This document shows, one piece after another, positions 5,023 through 32,950 of a DNA stretch of 64,000 nt. Source of the stretch: an uncultured bacterium (lineage in GTDB: Bacteria > Patescibacteriota > Minisyncoccia > Phycocordibacterales > GWA1-40-21); the NCBI GenBank assembly GCA_903822075.1, contig CAIJNK010000008.1, positions 21,961-85,960 on the forward strand, in the 5' to 3' direction. The translations under genes were made by a program, and so were the position numbers. The stretch's first letter is position 1. Every line of letters begins with the position of its first letter. Below the pieces are notes generated by a model. It was not told the DNA's origin. It did not search any database and saw nothing but the letters and a program-made list of their open reading frames with translations.

Positions 5023-5093
5023 TGCGGGTAGGGCGAATCGAACGCCCAACCAGAGTTTGGAAAACTCTCATTTTACCATTAAACTATACCCGC
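5023..5093 (-). tRNA. tRNA-Gly(UCC)
   Basis: Reverse-complement folds as a cloverleaf: acceptor GCGGGTA/TACCCGC, anticodon loop TTTCCAA, T-loop TTCGATT, discriminator A. Confidence 0.8.
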
Positions 5094-5146: not shown

Positions 5147-5455
5147 TTATTTCTCCGCCATGATTTTGACGATTTTTAGCACTTCGTCAAAGTTATCTCT
5201 TTTCTCCACTTTTTTTCGACGTTCAAAACCGCATTTCTCACAGCGAAAAGTGAGTAGATATTCACCCTTTTCCGTTTCAACCTTAATCGGTTTCATCATA
5301 CCCTGACAAGACGAAGATCGATCACCGGGGTTAACATCCACATGTTTACTCCACAAGCATTTGGGACAATGGTTAGTATAGCCGTCCCCCACCACCTTTT
5401 CTCCGCAGTGCTCGCAAATAAAATCCTCCACTTTTTTTTGAAACAGCTTAGTCAT
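5147..5455 (-). CDS. RNHCP-domain zinc-ribbon protein
   Basis: Motif GYTNHCPKCLWSKH plus CxxC pairs; 102 aa. Confidence 0.6.
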   Translation of the reverse strand: MTKLFQKKVEDFICEHCGEKVVGDGYTNHCPKCLWSKHVDVNPGDRSSSCQGMMKPIKVETEKGEYLLTFRCEKCGFERRKKVEKRDNFDEVLKIVKIMAEK

Positions 5456-5878: not shown

Positions 5879-5949
5879 CGGGGCGTGGTGTAACGGTAGC
5901 ATACATGCTTTGGGAGCATGCAGTTCGGGTTCAAATCCCGGCGCCCCGA
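5879..5949 (+). tRNA. tRNA-Pro(UGG)
   Basis: Acceptor CGGGGCG/CGCCCCG, anticodon stem CATGC/GCATG with loop TTTGGGA, T-loop TTCAAAT. Confidence 0.8.
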
Positions 5950-7625: not shown

Positions 7626-7696
7626 GCGGGCATGGTTTAGTGGTAGAACAGGTCCTTGCCAAGGATCAGACGGGAGTCCGATTCTCCCTGCCCGCA
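7626..7696 (+). tRNA. tRNA-Gly(GCC)
   Basis: Acceptor GCGGGCA/TGCCCGC, anticodon loop TTGCCAA, T-arm GGGAG-TCCGATT-CTCCC. Confidence 0.8.
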
Positions 7697-7725: not shown

Positions 7726-7797
7726 GCTCCCATGGTGAAATGGATATCACAACGGTCTTCGGAACCGTTATTGTGGGTTCGAGTCCTACTGGGGGCG
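7726..7797 (+). tRNA. tRNA-Arg(UCG)
   Basis: Acceptor GCTCCCA/TGGGGGC with one G·U pair, D-stem GTGA/TCAC, anticodon stem ACGGT/ACCGT with loop CTTCGGA, T-loop TTCGAGT. Confidence 0.75.
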
Positions 7798-7808
7798 CAA
7801 AAAATTAG

Positions 7809-9311
7809 ATGACTCTAAATAAGTACGAGGTAAAAAAGTTAAATCTTCCGGAAGAAGTGTTATTTGTCGTAAATACCTTGAAAAACAAGGGTTTTGAGGC
7901 GTATTTAATTGGTGGTTGTGTTCGAGATATCCTACTTAGCAGGAAACCAAAAGATTGGGACGTAACGACCAACGCCACACCAGAGGAGATAATCCCTTTA
8001 TTTAAAGATACTTTCTATGAAAACAATTATGGCACCGTAGGAATTGTAAATGAAGAGTGCAAAGATGAGACCTTAAAAGTGATTGAAGTGACACCATATC
8101 GTCTGGAAGCAGAGTATTCTGATAATAGGCGCCCTGATCACGTCACTTTTAGTAAAAACTTGGAAGAAGACTTACAAAGAAGGGATTTTACAATTAATGC
8201 TATTGCCTTAGATATTGATAAAACCGGTAAAAAAGGAGACTGCCTAGATTATTATAACGGACACGAGGACATAAATAATAAGATCATCCGAACCGTGGGG
8301 GAGGCTCATGACAGATTCAACGAAGACGGCCTTAGAATTCTACGCGCAGTCAGAATAGCCACAGAAATAGGTTTTAAAATTGATAAAAACACGGAAAAAG
8401 CCATAATTAACAACGTTTCTTTACTAAAAAAAATCGCTAAGGAAAGGATTCGGGATGAATTTGAAAAGATAGTTATGTCTGACCACCCCATGGATGGGCT
8501 GATTTTCTGTCGCAAGGTGGGTATTTTGCCATATATTTCACCAGAGATAGAAATAATGGTGAGTATTGAACAAAGTCGGTCCCATATTTATGATGTCTAC
8601 GAACACAGCTTACGGGCTTTACAGCATACCGCCGATAAAAAATACTCCTTAGAGTTGAGATTGGCAGCCCTTTTCCATGATATCGGCAAACCCAGCACCA
8701 GAAGGCGAGACGAGGCACAAAACCTTTGGACTTTTTACGGGCATGAAGTAGTGGGTTCTAAAATGGTAGCTAAAATTTTAACGGAGCTAAGATTCCCTAA
8801 GAAAGTGATTGAAAAAGTTACCAAGCTAGTTCGGTGGCATATGTTCTTTGCGGATACTGAACAAATTTCCTTATCGGCAGTCAGACGCATAATATCCAGT
8901 GTGGGGAGAGACAATATTTGGGACCTGATGAACTTACGTGGTGCTGACAGAATGGGCATGGGCAGACCAAAAGAAAGCCCATACCGCCTTAGAAAATATC
9001 ATTCAATGGTAGAAGAAGCGATGACCGATCCAGTATCTGTGGGGATGCTTAAAATTGACGGTCAGAAACTAATGGAAGTTACTCAAGAAAAGCCCGGACC
9101 CAAAATAGGCTATATTTTGCACGCTCTTTTGGAAGAAGTGTTAGAAAACCCAGCCTTAAACACGGAAGAGTATTTAAACAAAAGAAGTAAAGAATTAGTG
9201 AAATTAGATGCCTTAGAACTTAAAAAGCTTGGGGATTCCGGCAAAGAAACTAAAGAAAAGGAAGAGGAGAAGAAAATTGAGGATATAAGAAAAAAGTACT
9301 GGGTGAAATAG
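7809..9311 (+). CDS. cca: CCA-adding tRNA nucleotidyltransferase with HD domain
   Basis: GGCVRDILL…DWD polymerase-beta motif and an HD domain (LFHDIGK); sits directly downstream of the tRNA pair. Confidence 0.8.
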   Translation: MTLNKYEVKKLNLPEEVLFVVNTLKNKGFEAYLIGGCVRDILLSRKPKDWDVTTNATPEEIIPLFKDTFYENNYGTVGIVNEECKDETLKVIEVTPYRLEAEYSDNRRPDHVTFSKNLEEDLQRRDFTINAIALDIDKTGKKGDCLDYYNGHEDINNKIIRTVGEAHDRFNEDGLRILRAVRIATEIGFKIDKNTEKAIINNVSLLKKIAKERIRDEFEKIVMSDHPMDGLIFCRKVGILPYISPEIEIMVSIEQSRSHIYDVYEHSLRALQHTADKKYSLELRLAALFHDIGKPSTRRRDEAQNLWTFYGHEVVGSKMVAKILTELRFPKKVIEKVTKLVRWHMFFADTEQISLSAVRRIISSVGRDNIWDLMNLRGADRMGMGRPKESPYRLRKYHSMVEEAMTDPVSVGMLKIDGQKLMEVTQEKPGPKIGYILHALLEEVLENPALNTEEYLNKRSKELVKLDALELKKLGDSGKETKEKEEEKKIEDIRKKYWVK

Positions 9312-9743: not shown

Positions 9744-10496
9744 ATGTTTGATAAATATTTAAAAGAAATTGGTTTAAGTGAAAAAGAAGCGGAGGTATAT
9801 TTAGCCCTTTTACAAGGTGACAGTTTTTCGATATTGGAAATTGCCAAAAAAACAAAAATTAATAGAACAACAATTTATCCGGTAATCAAGTCATTATCGG
9901 AGAAAGGCTTGGTCAGCGAAACAACCACCAACACTAAAGTTCACTATCAAGCGGAATCTCCGGACCGCTTGGAAACATACATTGAAAGACAAAAAATTCT
10001 TTTGGAAGAAAATTCCAAGAAAATGAAGGACATCATACCCCAATTAAAAAGTACCAGGCGAGAAATGGGCGAGAGGCCGGTTGTAAAATATTTTGAGGGT
10101 AAAGAGGGAGTAATCAGCATTAATGAGGATATTTTTAAGGATCCGGAGCCACAAGAAAAGGCCTATATGATTTATTCCAAAGATTTGGTTGATGATGTGC
10201 TAAAAAACGAAGAAACGGCTAAGTTTAAGCATAAAAGGATTGACAGAAAGATCAAAGGCTTCTCCGTATACACCTATTCAAAAGGGGAAATACCCAGTGA
10301 TGAAACATCAACTAGAGTAAAAATTGACGGTAGCAAATATCCGATAAACTGCGATATCTCTGTCTACAAAGATAAGACCATAATTACAACCTTGAATAAA
10401 AAACTGGCGGGGATATACATTCAAAGCACCGATTTGGCTGAAACCTTAAAAAGTTTAATCAGAGTGATTCACGACTTAACAAACAACAAACAATAG
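9744..10496 (+). CDS. TrmB-like transcriptional regulator (paralog 2)
   Basis: HTH LKEIGLSEKEAEVYLALL; a 20-bp perfect palindrome lies upstream at 9613-9632; borders GC-rich island 1. Confidence 0.6.
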   Translation: MFDKYLKEIGLSEKEAEVYLALLQGDSFSILEIAKKTKINRTTIYPVIKSLSEKGLVSETTTNTKVHYQAESPDRLETYIERQKILLEENSKKMKDIIPQLKSTRREMGERPVVKYFEGKEGVISINEDIFKDPEPQEKAYMIYSKDLVDDVLKNEETAKFKHKRIDRKIKGFSVYTYSKGEIPSDETSTRVKIDGSKYPINCDISVYKDKTIITTLNKKLAGIYIQSTDLAETLKSLIRVIHDLTNNKQ

Positions 10497-11434: not shown

Positions 11435-11576
11435 ACGAATGGCCCTCGGAGAAGAACATAGAAAAAGCTGGTTATGGAGATTGCTCGAATACATCTTCGA
11501 GTAAGACCAGCGAAAGGGTGGAGTAAACCATCCTGAAACTGAAACAAACAACGGCGGGTAGATGTTCTACCCGTCT

Positions 11577-11641
11577 ATCCGTCGCAAGATATGTATCTTG
11601 CCTGATGAGTCCTTCACTTAGACGTTCAGGACGAAACGGAA
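11577..11641 (+). ncRNA. hammerhead ribozyme motif HHR1 (type III)
   Basis: GUC cleavage triplet; stem I hairpin gcaagata-tgt-atcttgc; CUGAUGA; stem II gtcct…aggac; GAAAC; a 5-bp stem III (tccgt/acgga) pairs with the upstream flank. Confidence 0.8.
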
Positions 11642-11666
11642 AAGATCTTTGAGAAAATGAAAATAA

Positions 11667-11717
11667 CACCTGCGCCGGATTGTTCTGAAATTATTTCAGA
11701 TTGATCCGGTGCAGGTG
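11667..11717 (+). other. long near-perfect hairpin A in HHR1-downstream leader
   Basis: Arms cacctgcgccggat / atccggtgcaggtg with one G·U pair, plus an inner tctgaaat/atttcaga stem. Confidence 0.5.
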
Positions 11718-12068
11718 TGCGCAGACACCCTAGCATGTATGTGCGGTCCCTAAACTCATCAACTTGACATCCTAGGTTGGGTTGGGTATAGGGCTACCGA
11801 CAATTCTTTCACCTCAGGAAAAGTTTTCCTGTTGCCGAAGGAGGGCATGACCAAACTTCGTTTACCGACGAAGCGCCTTCTGGAAAGAATACGGGGTGTG
11901 TAACCGACAGAAGGAGCAAATTGCCTCTTTCTAAACGGGCGGTGCCGTTCGCTTACACATTTCATGGATATAGGGGCCTTTACTCCGGTCAGGGGTCAAG
12001 GTTAGTAAAGTCCAGCTGCGCAATTTTTCAAACATTAACCATAGACAAAACTCAACGAAAGGGAATAA

Positions 12069-12365: not shown

Positions 12366-12527
12366 CTTCCGGGAGATCTGAGAGACAGATCGCCATGAAC
12401 CGGACGAGGTAGAGAAAACTACCTTTGGAACAGAAGCGACTACGGGCACATCACTCTACATAATGTCCCGAAAGTAAAATCCGTGAAAAAAATCACGTTA
12501 ATCATCCGAATACGCAAGGTATTCGGG

Positions 12528-12578
12528 TCTGTCTCACGATGTGTGTCGTGACTGATGAGCTCAAAAGAGCGAAACAGA
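12528..12578 (+). ncRNA. hammerhead ribozyme motif HHR2
   Basis: GUC triplet; stem I tcacga-tgtgtg-tcgtga; CUGAUGA; stem II gctc-aaaa-gagc; GAAAC; 5-bp stem III; preceded by the 8-bp hairpin ccgaatac/gtattcgg. Confidence 0.8.
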
Positions 12579-12602
12579 AAAGATCTTTGAGAATAAATAT
12601 TT

Positions 12603-12665
12603 GTCCTGCGTCTAGATTAGAAATTATTACCTGATTTTTAATCTAGACGCAGGACTCTTGCAGGG
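12603..12665 (+). other. 17-bp perfect-stem hairpin B downstream of HHR2
   Basis: gtcctgcgtctagatta … taatctagacgcaggac with a 29-nt AU-rich loop. Confidence 0.55.
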
Positions 12666-12909
12666 GTTGGACGTCTTTTGTTCACCGGTTTTCGCGAGCC
12701 GGTAACCGAATAGTATAAGGTTCGGAGCAGAGATCAGTCTCTGATAGGGGCAATGGGTCACCCTCAACCTGCACGACATAGAGATGCCGATAGTTCAAGC
12801 CTGATGTGAAGATTGTGTGGCTCCATTGTGGGCCCCAGCTTTACAAAAACGGTTTGATCATCTCTCGAGAGGGTAGCATTATGTCTGACCAACATTCTGC
12901 CCCCTCTCG

Positions 12910-12977
12910 TTTCTGTACGGGAGTATGTTCTCTCGCTGATGAGTCCTTCGCTTAGGCGTTCAGGATGAAACAGAAAA
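12910..12977 (+). ncRNA. hammerhead ribozyme motif HHR3
   Basis: GUA triplet; stem I cgggag-tatgtt-ctctcg; CUGAUGA; stem II gtcc…ggat; GAAAC; 7-bp stem III; the 12912-12986 stretch is identical to the HHR4 copy. Confidence 0.8.
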
Positions 12978-13002
12978 GATCTTTCAAACAAAGGGAGCTA
13001 AT

Positions 13003-13584
13003 ATGTTTTCAAGCAAAATCGGCAAAGGCAAGTTGTCAGTGAAAAAAGAATTCGCTGTCACCCTGCCCAAGGAGGCCAAGAAGTGGGATGACTACCGGTC
13101 GGAGATCGTGGAAGCTTTCCATACCTTGGGTGGAGTGCGGGGGATCATGGGCGTGACCGGTCTGCGTCAGACTCAGGCGTATTTACTGGCGGCGAAATTT
13201 GGATTGATTATCGAAAAAGCCGTCCGAAGGAACAGCCAAGTTTACGCCAGACGACGGATGAACAACCTCGAGCACTTAAGAAATGTTTGGGGCTGGCGGC
13301 CGGGGGATGACACAGTAACTTTGAAAAATGGGCGACACTATGCCGCTAACCGCAGTTTTATGGCTGGCAGATCGCATTTCAAAGAAGGTGAAGTCTTCGT
13401 CCAGTACTCTCTGCCTACAGGGAAAGTCCGCGAGTATTTGCTGGCTCACGGAGTTAAATGGTGGATTGCCGGAGTGGAAATGGTTCCAGTCGATGCGGTC
13501 AAAGGAGAGGGGGCCTCTCTTTCCATGAAACTGGAGACTTCGCATTTTGCCAAGGTTGATTGTCAACCCATAAAACAATCTTGA
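13003..13584 (+). CDS. hypothetical protein (island 1)
   Basis: 193 aa; SD AAAGGGAG; lies immediately downstream of HHR3; GC-rich codon usage. Confidence 0.55.
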   Translation: MFSSKIGKGKLSVKKEFAVTLPKEAKKWDDYRSEIVEAFHTLGGVRGIMGVTGLRQTQAYLLAAKFGLIIEKAVRRNSQVYARRRMNNLEHLRNVWGWRPGDDTVTLKNGRHYAANRSFMAGRSHFKEGEVFVQYSLPTGKVREYLLAHGVKWWIAGVEMVPVDAVKGEGASLSMKLETSHFAKVDCQPIKQS

Positions 13585-13611: not shown

Positions 13612-13675
13612 TCTGTACGGGAGTATGTTCTCTCGCTGATGAGTCCTTCGCTTAGGCGTTCAGGATGAAACAGAA
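13612..13675 (+). ncRNA. hammerhead ribozyme motif HHR4
   Basis: Exact repeat of the HHR3 core (13612-13686 matches 12912-12986). Confidence 0.8.
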
Positions 13676-13723
13676 AAGATCTTTCGGGAAAATTAGAAAC
13701 AAAACAGCAGAAGGAGAGAAGCT

Positions 13724-26537: not shown

Positions 26538-27269
26538 TTAGCCTAATTTCTCATAGAAAGTTTGGAATATTTGCTTTTGGAACTCGGCGATCCTCTTACT
26601 CTCAATAATCATGACCGTTTCCGTATTGTAATCGATAAAAGCGACTTTATTACCATAGATTATCTCAGTAACATTATGTTCAAAAGGACCAAAATCGTTC
26701 GGCATAATTTTTGCAAAGCGATCCAGGCTTGGTCTTTTGTGCACTGCCGTCTGGGCGTTAGTAATCACTTCTCGCTGTAATTTCTTTTCGTCACGCATTT
26801 GACGATAAATCCTGGGCACATATTTATCTTTTTTTTCATTACCGTCCTTGTTTGAACTGTAACGGTAAAAGACATCCCCTTTTTTAAGACTGCGCACCAC
26901 ATCATCAAAAATTCTTTTAGTTCCATCTCTTCCTTCAAGAAATCTGATCTTCGGTTTTTTCTCACTGCTATTATAGGCGTCCTCCATGTCCGGCAGGATT
27001 TCAAAAAAATCAATTCGTAAATCGTCAAAAAGAGTTTCTAATCGATTGGGTGGTTCAGCGCCATAAACTACACTTTTTATTTTTTGCGTTTTAGTGACTA
27101 GTTTTTTTTCCATGAGGGAGGGTAGGGCCTTGTAAACCAGGGGACGATGGATTGAAGTTTTTTCGGAAATTTGGGAGATATTGGAGGTTCCCATCTCCAG
27201 CAAAGCCAGGTAAATGGCACTTTCATGCTTAGTCAGGCCTATTTTCTCCAAAATCTTGTTTTTATCCAT
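26538..27269 (-). CDS. TrmB-like transcriptional regulator (paralog 3)
   Basis: HTH LEKIGLTKHESAIYLALL; divergently oriented from island 2. Confidence 0.6.
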   Translation of the reverse strand: MDKNKILEKIGLTKHESAIYLALLEMGTSNISQISEKTSIHRPLVYKALPSLMEKKLVTKTQKIKSVVYGAEPPNRLETLFDDLRIDFFEILPDMEDAYNSSEKKPKIRFLEGRDGTKRIFDDVVRSLKKGDVFYRYSSNKDGNEKKDKYVPRIYRQMRDEKKLQREVITNAQTAVHKRPSLDRFAKIMPNDFGPFEHNVTEIIYGNKVAFIDYNTETVMIIESKRIAEFQKQIFQTFYEKLG

Positions 27270-27869: not shown

Positions 27870-27898
27870 ACAACGGCGGGGATTAGGAACCCCCGCCT

Positions 27899-27960
27899 TC
27901 CGTCGCCAAGTGAAACTTGGCCTGATGAGTCCTTCACTTAGACGTTCAGGACGAAACGGA
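27899..27960 (+). ncRNA. hammerhead ribozyme motif HHR5
   Basis: GUC; stem I gccaag-tgaaa-cttggc; CUGAUGA; stem II as in HHR1; GAAAC; 5-bp stem III; preceded by the hairpin ggcgggg/ccccgcc. Confidence 0.8.
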
Positions 27961-28371: not shown

Positions 28372-28400
28372 CGGCCGAGAGGCTGTTTTTTAGACCCAAA

Positions 28401-28450
28401 CTGTCTCGGAATGTGTATTCCGGCTGATGATTCCGAAAGGATGAAACAGG
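28401..28450 (+). ncRNA. hammerhead-like motif HHR6 (variant, U·U at 10.1/11.1)
   Basis: GUC; stem I cggaat-gtgt-attccg; CUGAUGA; stem II ttcc-gaaa-ggat; GAAAC; 4-bp stem III. The conserved G10.1-C11.1 pair is replaced by U/U, so it may be inactive. Confidence 0.5.
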
Positions 28451-28478
28451 TAAGTTCATTAACAACAGGAGATATAAA

Positions 28479-28700
28479 ATGTCGTGCCCAGTATGCGGAA
28501 GAGTCTTATGTGATCACTCGCCGGATGAACGTGGACAATCCTACGAGGGGATGATGGCAGATATGGATAATGATACACGCCGAATACAAGGCGGGGGTGG
28601 CTTATTGGGGCCAGCAACACCATTTCATCCAAACAGCTTCAATCCTCGTAGAGATTTACCTCCAGGGGAACGACCAGCTGACTGGGGGTTACGAGATTGA
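28479..28700 (+). CDS. small Cys-containing hypothetical protein
   Basis: SD AGGAG 9 nt upstream; MSCPVCG…C. Confidence 0.35.
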   Translation: MSCPVCGRVLCDHSPDERGQSYEGMMADMDNDTRRIQGGGGLLGPATPFHPNSFNPRRDLPPGERPADWGLRD

Positions 28701-28732
28701 CAATACACCCCGCATCTTAATTGATGCGGGTA

Positions 28733-28782
28733 CTGTCCGAGAGTGTGTACTCTCGCTGATGAGTCCAAAAGGACGAAACGGA
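28733..28782 (+). ncRNA. hammerhead ribozyme motif HHR7
   Basis: GUC; stem I cgagagt-gtgt-actctcg; CUGAUGA; stem II gtcc-aaaa-ggac; GAAAC; preceded by the hairpin cccgcatc/gatgcggg. Confidence 0.8.
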
Positions 28783-28798
28783 AAAGTTCTTTGAAAAA

Positions 28799-28859
28799 GT
28801 TGCCAAGAGATTTGAGAACTTGATTTGTGATTAATTGATTTTTCAAATCTCTTGGCAAC
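28799..28859 (+). other. 17-bp perfect-stem hairpin C in 5' leader of REC-domain gene
   Basis: gttgccaagagatttga … tcaaatctcttggcaac with a 27-nt AU-rich loop. Confidence 0.55.
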
Positions 28860-28892
28860 AATAAACAAAAAGAAAGGAAACGAGGTAGAGGT

Positions 28893-30332
28893 ATGAATAA
28901 GACAAGCGGCATTGAGATCGTGAAGGGTACGCTCCATTTTGAACATGACGGAAACGGTTTCGTCTGTCGAGAGCTCAGGGAACTGCCGGTACTGTTTGGG
29001 GAGACTCATGGCACCGATAAAGTGGATGAGGCAATCAAGCAATACTTGGCGGGTCTGCGAGGAATTTTCGAACCGAGGTACGGCTCCAGGACGGAGCGGG
29101 ACGCGGTTCCGGAAGTCGAGCGGGTGCGTTTGGGTGGTTTGGCCTTCGATGAAATCGTGGGCTCGATCGACACCAAAGATCTCTCGCTCTTCCAGAAGCT
29201 CATGTTCTGGCTGTCGGACTGGTGGTATTACAATGTGGCTCTTCGTCAGAAGTGCAACTTTGATTACAACAAATTCGACTTCTACGGAATAAGCTCGAAA
29301 ATCATCGGCGAATTCGTGCTGGCTTTGCTGCCGGAACAGATTCAGTCGGTGCTCGGGAAGATGCAGGTAGCCGGAACCGCAGTGGGATTTGGTCACTTCG
29401 CCATTTTGTTCATTGATGGTGTTCATGGCCGGTCGGGAACGGTGCGCCGGATTGTGACGGATACGCAGCTCATTGAGTTGCATGACGTCAGCGGGTACAC
29501 CTACCTCGACATCACCAAGGAAGGGAAGCCGGTCGCAAGGTCGGTGACCAGCCGCGGTGGTGAGCGAGCGTTCTTCGACGGGGTTCGACTCATGTCGCAT
29601 GACATGTTTCAGACCTGCGCGCCCAAGACGGTCGTGATCAATGGTGGATACAAGGTGAACTCCACCCAATGCACGATTATCAATGGGATTCTGTTCCCGG
29701 TGATCGAGAGCAATGATGCCGTGGCGAAAACGACCGGCGCCTTTATGGGGATGGTGGATTTCACCAATACCCAGGCCCTCGAGTCTTATGCCTTGTCGGA
29801 AGCGACGGGGACGCGACTCAAGGTTGATGGGCCAAGGGTGTTTCTGGATAAAAAAGAGCTCAAACCGATCGGGGTTTTCCAACCCAGCTCGGTGCATCTA
29901 CTGGATTCAGGGTTTGCCCTCTACGACTGGTCGGACTTTCACGAGGTGATGAACTGTCGGTTCGATTCCGTTCTGGTCATTGATGACAAGAAGGATTGGA
30001 TCGATCAATTTCGGCAAGCCTTTGGCTCCGAGATCACTCACCTCAAAGAGGTCCAGACCAGTAGCCGTGAAGAAGCGCTTGGGGCGATTGTCAACGGAAA
30101 GCCAGAAGTGGTGATCCTCGACATGCACCTGTCCGACTCCGAGGGTTTTGAAGGCCTTTGGATTGCGAACCAGTTGTTCGCCAACGCATTCGGTGGTCGA
30201 ATCGTGATTGCGAGCAGTTACCCGGATGAACAATTGAAAGCCATGACTACTCTAATCAAGGGTAAGGTCTGGGCTCCAGGCAAGAACATCGACCGTATTC
30301 GTAAACTGCTCGGCAGTACGAATTGGCGATAA
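28893..30332 (+). CDS. protein with unknown N-terminal domain and C-terminal CheY-like receiver domain
   Basis: C-terminus VLVIDDKKD…VVILDMHLSDSEG…GKVWAPGK fits a response-regulator receiver domain; SD GAGGTAGAGG. Confidence 0.6.
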   Translation: MNKTSGIEIVKGTLHFEHDGNGFVCRELRELPVLFGETHGTDKVDEAIKQYLAGLRGIFEPRYGSRTERDAVPEVERVRLGGLAFDEIVGSIDTKDLSLFQKLMFWLSDWWYYNVALRQKCNFDYNKFDFYGISSKIIGEFVLALLPEQIQSVLGKMQVAGTAVGFGHFAILFIDGVHGRSGTVRRIVTDTQLIELHDVSGYTYLDITKEGKPVARSVTSRGGERAFFDGVRLMSHDMFQTCAPKTVVINGGYKVNSTQCTIINGILFPVIESNDAVAKTTGAFMGMVDFTNTQALESYALSEATGTRLKVDGPRVFLDKKELKPIGVFQPSSVHLLDSGFALYDWSDFHEVMNCRFDSVLVIDDKKDWIDQFRQAFGSEITHLKEVQTSSREEALGAIVNGKPEVVILDMHLSDSEGFEGLWIANQLFANAFGGRIVIASSYPDEQLKAMTTLIKGKVWAPGKNIDRIRKLLGSTNWR

Positions 30333-30403
30333 CGGCGACACTTGCGCCTATAAGTTGTAAGACTTATTAAAACTTACGACCTGCATCTTGATCGATGCAG
30401 GTT

Positions 30404-30452
30404 CTGTCCGAGAGTGTGTACTCTCGCTGATGAGTCCAAAAGGACGAAACAG
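30404..30452 (+). ncRNA. hammerhead ribozyme motif HHR8
   Basis: Same core as HHR7 with a different stem III (tctg/caga versus HHR7 tctg/cgga); preceded by the hairpin cctgcatc/gatgcagg. Confidence 0.8.
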
Positions 30453-30502
30453 TAGTTCTTTGAAACAAACAAGTCCCGACAGGGACGGAAAGGTGGAAAC
30501 AG

Positions 30503-30949
30503 ATGAAGAAGGCAGCATTTCTCTCGTACAATTCGATAGCGGGTTTTAGTGCCGGATGGATCGACGGCACGACAGACTGCAAGGCTCTGATTATTCCTTG
30601 TTCGCATGGGTCATCAGCCGCCCCGAAAGTTCGCAGCGAAGCTCAGTGTCATGATGTCACGAATGAGATCACTCGACTGTGGGCCCAGCTCCGAGAACAC
30701 GTAAAGGAGTTGGATTACATCGTCGTGTATGTTGGAAGTGATGGGTCGGAAAATGCCATCACACTAGCTTCTGAGCTACCTTCCGAAAAGGTAACCTTCG
30801 TGATGTGTGACTGCCGTCTTGGTACAAAGGATGAGCTTCTCAGAAGAGCTGGCCACACAAATGCTCGGCAAATTATGTGTGAATGTCGTGGGTTAGAGAC
30901 CATGGGCCGGCTCTGCAAAAGATTCCTGGATACTGGCATGATCGGCTAA
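30503..30949 (+). CDS. hypothetical Cys-rich protein
   Basis: 148 aa; SD AAAGGTGG. Confidence 0.45.
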   Translation: MKKAAFLSYNSIAGFSAGWIDGTTDCKALIIPCSHGSSAAPKVRSEAQCHDVTNEITRLWAQLREHVKELDYIVVYVGSDGSENAITLASELPSEKVTFVMCDCRLGTKDELLRRAGHTNARQIMCECRGLETMGRLCKRFLDTGMIG

Positions 30950-30990
30950 CGGAGGCATGGTTAGAGGTTCCATTACAAAAACCTCACACT

Positions 30991-31036
30991 AGCAAAGTGT
31001 GTACTTTCGCTGATAAGTCCAGAAGTATGAAACAGA
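30991..31036 (+). ncRNA. degenerate hammerhead relic HHR9
   Basis: CUGAUAAG (G8 changed to A), stem II disrupted (gtcc-agaa-gtat), no U at 16.1; still aligned with HHR7/8 and followed by the same leader. Confidence 0.4.
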
Positions 31037-31068
31037 AAAGTTCATAAACAACAAGATATGGAGATTAA

Positions 31069-31638
31069 ATGTCTAGTATATTGATGAAGTATGAATCCAG
31101 TTTCCGTGACGGTGAGAGCCTTGAGAATTTCGAGCTCTGTCTTCTACCTGGTGAAGTATGGCTTACCACTGAGCCGGAAATGATGACTTGGCTTGAAGCA
31201 ATAGAGATTGCTGGAGCTAAATCAAACTTACGCCTGCCACATTACGCTGATCTAATAAGGGCGGTAGAAAGTTTGTCGAAAGATAGCCGGCTTGGCGAGC
31301 AGTTCTCTCCACTTGAAGATGGAGAGTTTTGGACAATAGGTTCGGAGGGATATGAAGCAAATCAGCCATTCGCCTGTTGTGTTCAAGCCACACACAGTAG
31401 CTATGACTCACACAGCCTAAAGACTTGCCTAAAATGGGTAAGGTTCATCAAACGAGGTAAGGCAGAAACATCATTTGAAATCCAAAAGAAAAAGGAGTTG
31501 AGAGAAAGATGGATGCATGAGGTTAATCTTCACCGGAAAGTATCCGATATTCTTGATTTAGATCAAGTTGAAATTGGTACCATACATGGACAATTTCAAC
31601 TTGAATCAAAATCGCAAATTCGCAAAAGGCTGCAGTAA
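31069..31638 (+). CDS. hypothetical protein
   Basis: 189 aa; SD GGAG upstream of the ATG. Confidence 0.45.
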   Translation: MSSILMKYESSFRDGESLENFELCLLPGEVWLTTEPEMMTWLEAIEIAGAKSNLRLPHYADLIRAVESLSKDSRLGEQFSPLEDGEFWTIGSEGYEANQPFACCVQATHSSYDSHSLKTCLKWVRFIKRGKAETSFEIQKKKELRERWMHEVNLHRKVSDILDLDQVEIGTIHGQFQLESKSQIRKRLQ

Positions 31639-31711
31639 TGTCAATGCGGCGCAGAGAAAGATAAAAAGTGGAGACAACCACCTATCAAAAACCCTGGGGA
31701 ATTTACCCAGG

Positions 31712-31764
31712 TTCTGTCCGGGAGTGTGTACTCTCGCTGATGAGTCCAAAAGGACGAAACGGAA
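31712..31764 (+). ncRNA. hammerhead ribozyme motif HHR10
   Basis: GUC; stem I cgggagt-gtgt-actctcg with a G·U pair; CUGAUGA; gtcc-aaaa-ggac; GAAAC; 6-bp stem III; preceded by the hairpin cctggg/cccagg. Confidence 0.8.
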
Positions 31765-31795: not shown

Positions 31796-32950
31796 ATGAC
31801 AACAAAAAAAGAGAAAACAATTCTGTGCGACGCCAAGGCTTTCTGCTTTGGGCCCATATCGAAACTCTTAACGATTAGCGAGAGACTCTTTGAAAAGTAT
31901 CGAATTGTGTTTCTGGTCTCCCGGACAAGCAAGATGCTTTCCGCGCATGCTTGCGCCGATGAGATAGTGGAATGTGATACGGAAAACATCACCGATCTAT
32001 TGGCACACGAGGCCTTGTTTAAGTCGGCCGACCTGTTTGTAAACATTATGAATCCGCTCTCGGCACGTTTTGCGGCCGAAAGAGGATTACCGATGGTCCA
32101 GATAGACAGCTTGTTCTGGATGTGGGAACAGATAGCGGAAGAAATTCTCAGCTCAGAGATTTATTTCATTCAGGACTTTGAAGGAGTCGCTGAGCAAATG
32201 AAAAAATTCTCTGGCCGGATAAAGAATCCGGTTCTGGTCGGTCCAATCATAAAAGAGGTTCCTAATGGCGTACCGAAGAAGAACAAACTGCTCATTAATT
32301 TGGGCGGGATGGAATCGGCTTCGATAAAGGTGGGGGTTAATACGGAGTACCCTTACGTAATAATGCGACTCATCAATGATTTGCTGGCAAAAGGCCACGA
32401 CTTTGCTGAGATTGTCTGTGCGGGTAACCGAGACATTCTGGAAGAGATGAAAAGGAGGACACCGAACGGGGCTATTCATTACCAGTTCTTTGAACATAAT
32501 GATTTTCTCCGGCAGATAGCGGAATCAAGGTTGATCATATCGTCTCCGGGACTGACAACCGCCTTCGAGGTTTTTAATTCGGGGACACCGGTGTTCTTCA
32601 TACCGCCCCAGAATTACAGCCAATATTGGAATCTTGATAGTTTTATCAAGAACGGTGTGGCGGAAGAAGCAATAAACTGGAATCACCTCTACTCGGAGGT
32701 AAGCATTCTGAAAAACGAGGAACAAAAGAAAGGGATTGAAAAAGTACTTCAATGTACCCGCCAATTCGAAAAGGATCCAAAAGCTTGGTCCAAAGTGGAG
32801 GGAGGTGTAAAACACTTTCTCACTCTCCCAACAGATGAATTGGAGGGGGTGGGGAAGCGTCAGAAGAAGTACTTCGAAACGCTCGGTGGTAACGGTACAG
32901 AGGTCATAGTCAAAGGTATTATAGACTTACTCGAGAAGAGGAAAGTATAA
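31796..32950 (+). CDS. GT-B fold glycosyltransferase-like protein (MurG/GT28-like C-terminal domain)
   Basis: The start is placed at the ATG after SD AAAGGAGA, because the longer ORF from 31568 runs through HHR10 and the upstream gene. C-terminal LIISSPGLTTAFEVFNSGTPVFFIPP resembles the nucleotide-sugar-binding half of MurG-like enzymes. Confidence 0.5.
   Translation: MTTKKEKTILCDAKAFCFGPISKLLTISERLFEKYRIVFLVSRTSKMLSAHACADEIVECDTENITDLLAHEALFKSADLFVNIMNPLSARFAAERGLPMVQIDSLFWMWEQIAEEILSSEIYFIQDFEGVAEQMKKFSGRIKNPVLVGPIIKEVPNGVPKKNKLLINLGGMESASIKVGVNTEYPYVIMRLINDLLAKGHDFAEIVCAGNRDILEEMKRRTPNGAIHYQFFEHNDFLRQIAESRLIISSPGLTTAFEVFNSGTPVFFIPPQNYSQYWNLDSFIKNGVAEEAINWNHLYSEVSILKNEEQKKGIEKVLQCTRQFEKDPKAWSKVEGGVKHFLTLPTDELEGVGKRQKKYFETLGGNGTEVIVKGIIDLLEKRKV

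Follow-up and report, generated by a model that had tools for sequence, protein, structure and literature searches.

Variant, duplicated and degenerate members of a type III hammerhead ribozyme family from variable islands on a Patescibacteria chromosome

The window analysed here is a stretch of 64,000 nucleotides from a Patescibacteria (Paceibacteria/Parcubacteria-like) chromosome, in which ten hammerhead ribozyme (HHR) sites sit in two variable gene islands. All ten are on the + strand, in spacers between consecutive + strand genes. The question raised by this locus is whether its unusual copies, namely HHR6 with a U/U mismatch in stem II, HHR9 with a substituted core, and HHR3 and HHR4 in a direct repeat, reflect turnover within one ribozyme family, and whether HHR6 and HHR9 are both decaying, as the heading of the original prediction implied. 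Proteins from Paceibacterota and Taylorbacteria match the PNPase at 88-89% identity, and among the 24-mer core genome matches listed, 58 of 80 carry CPR lineage labels.

Nine of the sites (HHR1-8 and HHR10) are intact type III hammerheads, and the tenth, HHR9, is a degenerate copy. The CUGAUGA core (C3 U4 G5 A6 N7 G8 A9) is complete in the nine and reads CUGAUAA in HHR9. All nine intact copies also have GAAAC and U16.1, and position 17 is C, except in HHR3 and HHR4, where it is A. Stems I and II are loop-capped and stem III is open, and the covariation is consistent with the type III fold: 96% of cells are paired across the window copies in the true register, compared with 32-49% in slid-partner controls, and compensatory changes on both sides of the pair occur at 9 of the 16 pairs. 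The MFE structure of HHR1 (11578-11640, +; long stem II, predicted cleavage after C11583) is the hammerhead fold, and the energy of this fold lies between -10.8 and -14.9 kcal/mol in the copies other than HHR9, versus +9.8 kcal/mol for HHR9.

In a search of the window with R1, a model built without HHR9, the nine intact copies score 58-77 bits. HHR9 reaches 26.8 bits, with an E-value of 4e-5 for the complete window. Reversed-sequence controls for this type of search gave zero matches. HHR1 scores 66.2 bits (39.6 bits with Rfam model RF00008). Copies of the short form include HHR2 (12528-12578, +; stem II GCUC/GAGC, predicted cleavage after C12533, 16/16 pairs) at 70.1 bits, HHR7 in the 5' UTR of w479 (28732-28782, +; predicted site 28737/28738) at 74.9 bits (RF00008, 41.6), HHR8 in the 5' UTR of w148 (30403-30453, +; predicted site 30408/30409) at 76.6 bits (RF00008, 45.3), and HHR10 in the 5' UTR of w384 (31713-31763, +; gene at 31796-32950; 16/16 pairs) at 76.5 bits. 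The copies share with RF00008 type III hammerheads the core from C3 to A9, the GAAA that includes G12-A14, the A15.1-U16.1 pair, the H17 site and the open stem III, but they are compact and uniform, with a stem I of 7 bp under a GUGU loop, and with AAAA or GAAA capping a stem II of 4 bp. Their RF00008 scores, 23.8-45.3 bits across the copies matched, never reach the gathering threshold of 48.5 because the stems and loops are short; all catalytic positions are consensus. At the gathering threshold Rfam reports only tRNAs, and the hammerheads emerge solely at E-value thresholds, so standard annotation overlooks them.

The fact that every Rfam score falls under the gathering threshold could be taken to mean that these matches arose by chance or through faulty assembly. 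We give this reading practically no weight. The pattern CTGATGA-N(6-36)-GAAAC is observed 9 times in the 64-kb window, where 0.34 occurrences are expected, and this excess, together with the covariation, the R1 scores, the empty reversed controls and the identical copies in independent assemblies, already refutes it. We take the anatomy, covariation, homology, distribution and degeneracy of the family to be established. Two other R1 matches were rejected: both lack the hammerhead core, and the one at 5271-5315 (-; 21.7 bits) appears to be coding, with a Zn-ribbon-like ORF reading through it, as the one at 8506-8551 (+) apparently lies within coding sequence.

HHR6 (28400-28450, +) is the copy with the U/U mismatch, for which the heading of the original prediction implies decay. 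It reads, segment by segment, CUGUC up to the predicted cleavage site (after C28405), then UCGGAAU, GUGU, AUUCCGG, CUGAUGA, UUCC, GAAA, GGAU and GAAACAG. Stems I and III are intact, stem II is UUCC-GAAA-GGAU with its GAAA loop 2, U and U face each other at 10.1/11.1, and all other positions are consensus. It scores 69.4 bits with R1 and 32 bits with RF00008 (local scan only), and its hammerhead fold is stable at -10.8 kcal/mol. Sequence and fold thus agree with the description of HHR6 as keeping the core elements CUGAUGA and GAAAC and stems I and III, with U/U at 10.1/11.1.

The inference of decay does not follow from this description. U10.1-U11.1 hammerheads occur naturally, and U-U is the best-tolerated and most active mismatch at this position (Perreault 2011, PMC3088659, which cites a 1990 mutational analysis); HHR6, whose stem II is closed by precisely this mismatch, differs in nothing essential from those variants. 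Eight further copies among the first 255 hammerheads that we collected have U-U. A U-U pattern was matched by 53 stretches of viral DNA and by at least 120 from metagenomes, and 170 of 174 matches lie within complete folds. The mismatch recurs, then, in at least 170 complete, covarying hammerheads. The loci fetched contain 104 distinct U-U sequences, which makes this subclass large, and covariation in stem I is strong, each position being occupied by 4-6 pair types. Most of its members have A17, while HHR6 has C17. In locus L337, a copy identical to HHR6 at 49 of 49 positions stands in unrelated flanks.

Could HHR6 nonetheless be crippled and heading for loss, the U/U being a deleterious change from the near-universal G-C? 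G-C is by far the commonest state at 10.1/11.1 (235/255), the N7 of G10.1 contributes to a catalytic metal site (PMC7151607), and a copy in L160 that shares stem I with HHR6 has the canonical stem II GCUC/GAGC. We nevertheless regard this as very unlikely, given the 104 distinct, fully paired and covarying U-U hammerheads, the identical copy in L337, the consensus state of all other positions in a stable fold, and the tolerance of U-U in the literature (PMC3088659). Judged from their sequences, the closest relatives of HHR6 show purifying conservation and not decay. Most likely, HHR6 belongs to a widespread and conserved U10.1-U11.1 subclass of functioning ribozymes and is predicted to be active, although its cleavage might be slower or depend on metals in another way. 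To treat the mismatch as damage is a tempting misreading, which the existence of a conserved working subclass corrects. Just upstream of HHR6 and 3' of w123 there is a canonical terminator-like hairpin (CGGCCGAGAGGCUG) with a U6 tract (28372-28391, +), so read-through RNA alone would contain HHR6; an equivalent hairpin and U-run follow the w123 counterpart in L160.

HHR9 (30986-31036, +), in the 5' UTR of w189 (31069-31638), is a different case. It has the same length, 51 nt, as HHR6, HHR7, HHR8 and HHR10, and is 38/49 identical to HHR8 in an ungapped alignment, which agrees with the predicted base-for-base alignment. It has no match in Rfam, but its score against a model that lacks it indicates that it is related to the other copies. 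G8 has become A and C3 is unchanged, so there is no C3U partner. Stem II has C/U at 10.3/11.3 and G/U at 10.1/11.1, and altogether 10/16 pairs are kept and 6/16 are broken, across stems I, II and III; the G8 substitution and the disrupted stem II were correctly called. Whether U16.1 is absent, as had been noted, varies with the register chosen. Infernal aligns the copy with a 2-nt deletion in stem I and a G at 16.1, whereas the ungapped register keeps U16.1 and A17 and breaks 16.2, 16.3 and the two basal pairs of stem I. The hammerhead fold is lost in either register.

The surroundings of HHR9 are in better condition than the ribozyme. Its upstream hairpin (30964-30985, +; GAGGUU...AACCUC) is still intact and resembles the hairpin in L164, and its leader (31037-31068, +; AAAGTTCATAAACAACAAGA...GGAG) is conserved and reaches the w189 start codon. 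Hairpin, leader and start codon align with relatives (HHR6, L163 and L164 in the leader alignment). The leader had been described as kept, and it is, but it (AAAGTTCATAAACAACA) is 86% identical to that of HHR6 and belongs to the HHR6 type, not to the HHR7/8 type.

Comparison with related loci supports the view that HHR9 is a degenerate copy. The relative L160 has no homologs of w73, w148, w189 or w126, and counterparts of HHR9 were therefore sought through w189 homologs. No HHRs were found in L157-159, which have a 71% identical w479, or in L339-341, which have an about 90% identical PNPase, and these loci therefore cannot serve as counterparts of HHR6 or HHR9. In L163, L164 and L347 the gene homologous to w189 is preceded by a structurally intact hammerhead (50.7-62.1 bits). 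The counterpart in L347 also has G8A, with all stems intact, so the reasonable expectation that G8A means a dead ribozyme is not a simple one.

We also considered that HHR9 or its G8A is kept for a function, as an attenuated or conditional ribozyme or as a leader that holds w148 and w189 on one mRNA. In the loci scanned, which contain about 419 copies, G8A with intact stems was seen once, before the homologous gene in L347; the protein tree places L347 apart from the window, which suggests that the two G8A events may be independent; and the hairpin and leader of HHR9 are still conserved. Since L347 shares G8A in this way, the substitution may represent attenuation under selection and not simply decay. 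Yet 6/16 pairs are broken in all three stems of HHR9, at the cost in folding energy given above, and there is no compensating C3U: the U3/A8 covariation has been reported as an active form (Perreault 2011, PMC3088659), and no U3/A8 covariants occur in the loci scanned. The tree, moreover, is only a rough one, built by NJ from a protein of 189 aa, and recombination moves HHR parts about; the two G8A copies may therefore share ancestry. We consider a retained function improbable. HHR9 is most likely a dead relic, by G8A and broken stems I, II and III, of a hammerhead that is structurally intact in relatives. The w189-family locus then offers a natural series, from intact copies (L163, L164) through G8A alone (L347) to the fully decayed HHR9, and this is a ready-made test set for hammerhead loss.

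Turnover is also visible in the first island, where HHR3 and HHR4 with 11 nt of their leaders form a perfect direct repeat (12912-12985 and 13612-13685, both +; HHR3 has A17, G10.1-U11.1, a long stem II and 60.6 bits with R1). The original prediction put the repeat at 75 bp and took it to indicate a recent duplication. A recent copy is in agreement with our results, but the repeat is 74 nt and contains the ribozyme and leader only. Since the genes on either side occur once each, we take it for a module copy, a gene conversion or a cassette insertion, and not a segmental duplication. The two copies flank a single gene, w193 (13003-13584), whose 193-aa ORF does not vary among several contigs, and two independent assemblies (L342, L343) carry the repeat with zero mismatches. 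Most likely the ribozyme and leader module was copied, or converted, very recently on the two sides of one gene. Retrozymes, non-autonomous retroelements of plants and animals, also have type III hammerheads in direct repeats, and HHR3/HHR4 resemble them in having two identical direct repeats, a type III hammerhead in each, and a segment of about 700 nt. They differ in the protein-coding interior (w193), the lack of a linked reverse transcriptase and the bacterial host.

The copies are also mosaic, as had been proposed for HHR3 and HHR4. Stem I of these two is 83-89% identical to HHR7, HHR8 and HHR10 and 33% identical to HHR1, while their stem II is 88% identical to HHR1 and HHR5. HHR5 (27899-27960, +; 58.2 bits with R1) has a long stem II identical to that of HHR1 and a leader of the HHR10 type. 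All three segments, stem I, stem II and leader, vary in type independently of one another among the copies, and we believe that they were most likely reassorted by recombination. With the decay of HHR9 and the copying of HHR3/HHR4, these mosaic parts agree with the proposal of a dynamic paralogous family with turnover.

Mosaic modules and a repeat that ends exactly at the module borders, with a single gene between, may also be read as signs of mobility. The modules might be junctions of mobile gene cassettes, with the 74-nt repeat marking insertion or excision of w193, or the HHR-bounded RNA might circularise; turnover would then be mobility and not mutation in place. Gene order is shuffled between the window and its 70%-identity relative L160, with an HHR at every junction, close relatives lack the islands, and 21 pairs of identical HHRs stand in unrelated flanks. 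However, an HHR is present in every island spacer, and breakpoints would fall on HHRs in any case; the window shows no recombinase or reverse transcriptase associated with the modules, PHROGs gave nothing phage-like apart from weak regulator hits, and no presence/absence polymorphism of w193 was seen in 5 contigs. We rate this explanation as unlikely. In its fullest form, portable junctions akin to integron attC would insert, delete and reorder single genes by recombination or gene conversion at repeats of about 50-75 nt, which would account for the w193 repeat, the order shuffle in L160, the mosaic composition, the recurrence of identical HHRs between unrelated flanks, and the rare G8A found before both of two homologous genes; we hold this, too, to be doubtful. 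The same low standing applies to its corollary that graded ribozyme states (G-C, U-U/A-A, G8A, dead) tune the sharing of one mRNA by neighbours.

The position of the ribozymes relative to genes would fit a role in transcript processing. The module has a fixed order of hairpin, HHR, leader and gene. Most copies are preceded, at a distance of 0-3 nt, by a hairpin of -14 to -18 kcal/mol, for example the stable hairpin directly before HHR7 (28709-28730, +); others are at 11553-11575, 12506-12526, 12867-12908, 27875-27897, 30379-30402 and 31693-31711. The leader contains the conserved motif AAAG[A/T]TC[T/A]TT. In 432 unique HHR contexts, a same-strand ORF starts within 250 nt in 91%, at a median of 29 nt (65% and 93 nt in the mirror control), and the median MFE of the 40 nt upstream is -10.6 kcal/mol versus -4.7 kcal/mol (p 5e-54). 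The first gene after the divergent TrmB gene has no HHR (w99 in the window, and the w189 homolog in L166-168), while the w189 gene family has one when it is island-internal (window, L163, L164 and L347).

Based on this arrangement, the most likely function, we infer, is self-cleavage of long island transcripts into single-gene mRNAs. The islands would be transcribed as long RNAs from a start next to the TrmB-type regulator gene, and the ribozymes would cut these RNAs co-transcriptionally. The upstream product would end in the hairpin with a 2',3'-cyclic phosphate, and the downstream mRNA would carry a 5'-OH and the folded ribozyme at its beginning, some 30 nt ahead of the start codon, where the short conserved leader would supply a ribosome-binding site ahead of the next gene. 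With HHR9 dead, w148 and w189 would remain on one RNA. Promoter and terminator scans gave counts not above those in shuffled sequence, and no island promoters could be defined. RiboJ-type synthetic insulators place a type III hammerhead between the upstream RNA and the ribosome-binding site and so give a defined mRNA 5' end that is independent of upstream context. The window copies would be natural functional analogues, with the hairpin upstream of the ribozyme and not downstream of it. As a whole, the explanation that one type III family cuts the island transcripts, with HHR6 working, HHR9 dead, HHR3 and HHR4 a recent copy and the parts reassorted, seems to us probable.

Clusters of same-strand hammerheads that flank single genes or short blocks have been described in prophages and bacteria, where processing of long transcripts into gene-length mRNAs was proposed, some copies were considered possibly non-functional, integrase genes were often nearby and type II was very common in bacteria (Perreault 2011, PMC3088659). 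The window resembles these clusters in having several same-strand HHRs that flank individual genes. Its hammerheads are type III, in chromosomal Patescibacteria islands by TrmB with no clear phage signature in PHROGs, and they form a fixed hairpin-HHR-leader module, with up to 11 copies in 10 kb in Patescibacteria variable islands. No integrase gene was seen within the islands; in L160 a tyrosine recombinase lies about 5 kb off, beside the ribosomal protein S15 gene. A blastn search of 27.5-33 kb against a phage database gave no match, and PHROGs left 8/10 island proteins unmatched, w479 being phrog_731 (function unassigned) and w96 weakly repressor-like.

A variant of the HHR6 type, a relic and the swapping of parts all fit existing knowledge of hammerheads. 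In the literature searched we found no paper linking hammerheads to Patescibacteria or CPR, and their high density in the variable islands of these bacteria appears to be unreported. Compact type III hammerheads are very dense in these islands, yet they fall under the Rfam cut-off. Should cleavage be confirmed, mRNA maturation in these reduced genomes would routinely include processing by ribozymes.

The pattern CTGATGA-N(6-36)-GAAAC has nine matches in the window, all on the plus strand, against 0.34 expected from shuffled sequences. Eight of these nine sites are also matched by the Rfam type III hammerhead model RF00008, with E-values from 1e-6 to 1.3, although the RF00008 scores of the window copies (23.8-45.3 bits) are all below the gathering score of 48.5. 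HHR6 was matched in a local scan only (32 bits), and HHR9, the degenerate member of the ten hammerhead sites, had no RF00008 match at all. When the eight distinct intact copies were aligned with the canonical three-stem structure imposed, 96% of cells were paired and 9 of 16 pairs had changes on both sides, while sliding the partners as a control lowered pairing to 32-49%, so the hammerhead fold of the window copies is well supported. R1, a covariance model from these eight copies, gave the nine intact copies scores of 58-77 bits and the left-out HHR9 a score of 26.8 bits (E-value 4e-5 for the window as a whole). Two weaker R1 matches were dropped on reading the sequence, as they have no hammerhead core and apparently lie in coding sequence. 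The window copies agree with type III hammerheads in every tested sequence and structure feature except the Rfam score cut-off.

Each window copy is preceded by a hairpin, 0-3 nt upstream for most, typically at -14 to -18 kcal/mol and weaker before HHR4 and HHR9. Downstream of each copy lies an A-rich leader, short and with a motif like AAAGATCTTT, AAAGTTCTTT or AAAGGTCGAAA, and then a ribosome-binding site and the start codon of the next gene. A pairing-based scan of all fetched loci, of which an earlier run gave no matches in reversed controls, provided 432 unique hammerhead contexts. In these, 91% have a same-strand ORF start within 250 nt of the hammerhead, at a median of 29 nt (65% and 93 nt in a mirror-image control), and the upstream 40 nt have a median folding energy of -10.6 kcal/mol versus -4.7 for random 40-mers (p 5e-54).

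We made several further observations on this module. The leader motif, AAAG(A/T)TC(T/A)TT, is kept after the ribozyme in this genome (for example at 11641-11652, 12579-12590, 12975-12985 and 28783-28795) and in many Patescibacteria loci, and AAAGATCTTT is a perfect palindrome. The hairpins upstream of HHR5, 7, 8, 10 and 1 (27875-27897, 28709-28730, 30379-30402, 31693-31711 and 11555-11573) have the score of an intrinsic terminator only when read on the minus strand, with the T-run on the minus side and the A-run on the plus side; on the plus strand the hammerhead occupies the place of the U-tract. Such hairpins may stop antisense transcription and let sense transcription enter the ribozyme. 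Downstream of the leaders of HHR1, HHR2 and HHR7 are long near-perfect hairpins of ~53-61 nt with AT-rich loops (11666-11718, 12603-12655 and 28799-28859, the third inside the 5' UTR of gene w479). Their Rfam hits are weak microRNA-like chance matches, and they could act as 5' stabilisers or operators or be small elements. CCGAUGA (U4 to C), found in four hammerheads with fully intact stems (L160 436-486, L163 5395-5445, L118 and L078, all comparison loci), may be a further recurrent core variant.

The original prediction placed HHR6 (28400-28450) among variant and decaying copies. Its description is accurate: the core is consensus, stems I and III are intact, and stem II, UUCC-GAAA-GGAU, is closed by a U-U mismatch at 10.1/11.1. 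Decay does not fit, as the U-U mismatch, in agreement with the natural variant reported before (Perreault et al. 2011, PMC3088659), recurs widely in complete folds and a metagenome contig (L337 2350-2398, minus strand of that locus) has a copy identical to HHR6 at 49/49 positions, U-U included, in unrelated flanks. In the first 255 hammerheads that were scanned, positions 10.1/11.1 hold G-C in 235 copies, U-U in 9, A-A in 5 and G-U in 3, and the stems are intact in the non-G-C copies. A U-U-specific pattern matched 53 stretches of viral and at least 120 of metagenome sequence, and 170 of 174 matches have a complete three-stem fold. The number of distinct sequences is 104, and every position of stem I shows 4-6 pair types among them. 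Given that the N7 of G10.1 takes part in a metal site (PMC7151607), an altered rate or ion preference of the U-U copies is possible. The cleavage position is mostly A in this subclass (86/104 distinct sequences from metagenome and IMG/VR loci L169-L338) and mostly C in the G-C class (184/255), so that the combination of U-U with C17 makes HHR6 unusual. Hammerheads before homologs of w189, the gene downstream of HHR9, in L163 and L164 have the leader type and GAAA loop in common with HHR6, with A-A and A/C at 10.1/11.1.

For HHR9 (30986-31036), nearly all of the earlier description was borne out. The core reads CUGAUAA, which is G8A with C3 unchanged, all three stems are broken with 10 of 16 pairs left, and the copy has the length of HHR6/7/8/10 and is identical to HHR8 at 38/49 positions without gaps. 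The reported absence of U16.1 depends on the register: that of Infernal, with a 2-nt deletion in stem I, puts G at 16.1, whereas the ungapped register retains U16.1/A17 but loses the pairing at 16.2, at 16.3 and at the foot of stem I. The ribozyme fold is at +9.8 kcal/mol, compared with -10.8 to -14.9 in the remaining short hammerheads, and the minimum-energy fold is another structure (-9.9). The downstream leader is kept as claimed: the upstream hairpin, leader (AAAAGTTC.T..ACAACA) and start codon align with loci of w189 homologs. Because structurally intact hammerheads precede these homologs (L163, 59.9 bits; L164, 50.7 bits; L347, 62.1 bits), the window lineage has lost a once-present ribozyme, and HHR9 is a relic of it.

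The hammerhead at L347 1867-1917 has the same G8A as HHR9 with all stems intact, and is the only G8A copy among ~419 strictly paired hammerheads from all loci. In a rough NJ protein tree, the window groups with L163 (G8), and L347 with the protein P0078 and L164 (G8). The shared G8A may therefore have two separate origins at the same gene; that the history of the ribozyme differs from that of the gene is also plausible because of the module mosaicism described below. An attenuated ribozyme could be selectively favoured at this gene. We prefer the reading that G8A is a first hit toward decay, which would be early in L347 and late in the window, since HHR9 has breaks in each of its three stems and C3U compensation is absent; U3-A8 is the active covariant reported by Perreault et al. 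(2011, PMC3088659).

HHR3 and HHR4 do lie in a perfect direct repeat, of 74 nt (12912-12985 and 13612-13685), one less than originally predicted. It runs from the first base of stem III to 11 nt into the leader, with unrelated genes on either side of the copies, and the ~3 kb spanning both are reproduced without mismatch in two independent assemblies of other samples. As the repeat covers the module only, segmental duplication is ruled out; gene conversion between adjacent modules, copy-paste of a module, and insertion of a cassette with w193, the gene between them, by recombination at a hammerhead all fit. The suggested mosaic is also seen: stem I of HHR3/4 shares 83-89% identity with HHR7/8/10 and 33% with HHR1, and the 24-nt stem II shares 88% with HHR1/5. 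In the leader, the identity of HHR3/4 to HHR1/2 is 79-86%, and HHR5 combines the stem II of HHR1 (100%) with a leader of the HHR10 type (86%). All four combinations of stem II and leader type occur, and likewise of stem I and stem II type, an assortment that no simple recombination-free tree explains.

Gene order differs as well. The w384 counterpart comes next after w123 in L160, while in the window w73, w479, w148 and w189 lie in between; in both, the upstream terminator stays with w123 and the leader with w384. Besides the L337/HHR6 case, another 21 hammerhead pairs are identical but have unrelated flanking sequence. These differences and identical copies are compatible with cassette shuffling at modules, although breakpoints at hammerheads are trivially expected because every island spacer has one.

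The window encodes a PNPase 88-89% identical to Candidatus Paceibacterota and Taylorbacteria proteins, a CCA-adding enzyme (7809-9311) and, adjoining it upstream of the first island, four tRNA genes (5023-5093 (-), 5879-5949, 7626-7696, 7726-7797 (+)), and it has no phage database match. The exact 24-mer that spans the core and stem II in HHR7/8/10 is present in >119 genome stretches and 34 IMG/VR contigs; the 80 matches listed are 58 from Patescibacteria lineages, 17 unlabelled and 5 from other phyla. L160 (w479 protein 70% identical) has 11 hammerheads in 10 kb, L157-159 (71% identical) have none in 27 kb, and three close relatives (L339-L341, PNPase ~90% identical) have none in the 66 kb of housekeeping sequence that surrounds PNPase. 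By this distribution, the hammerheads reside in variable islands whose small genes have no assigned family, and these ribozyme-rich islands vary between related genomes.

A TrmB-family regulator gene lies beside the start of both window islands (9744-10496 (+) and 26538-27269 (-)) and is also found at L160 3644-4375, L166 4306-5827 and L347 342-1082; in several relatives its neighbours belong to the same gene families. No hammerhead precedes the gene that comes first after the divergent TrmB gene (w99 in the window, a w189 homolog in L166-168), and the w189 family carries one where it is island-internal. Long island transcripts cut by hammerheads into single-gene mRNAs would predict this arrangement, and we infer co-transcription and cleavage in the window organism from it. 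An mRNA-cutting role was proposed for clustered prophage hammerheads, supported by three native tandem arrangements that cleaved in vitro, in a study that also reported clustering around genes, the U-U variant and a suspicion that some copies are non-functional (Perreault et al. 2011, PMC3088659). We found no paper on hammerheads in Patescibacteria islands in the literature searched. New here are the clear mosaicism of the module parts, the series at one position before a gene family from structurally intact through G8A only to decayed, and the abundance of compact type III hammerheads, in a fixed hairpin-hammerhead-leader module, in variable islands of Patescibacteria.
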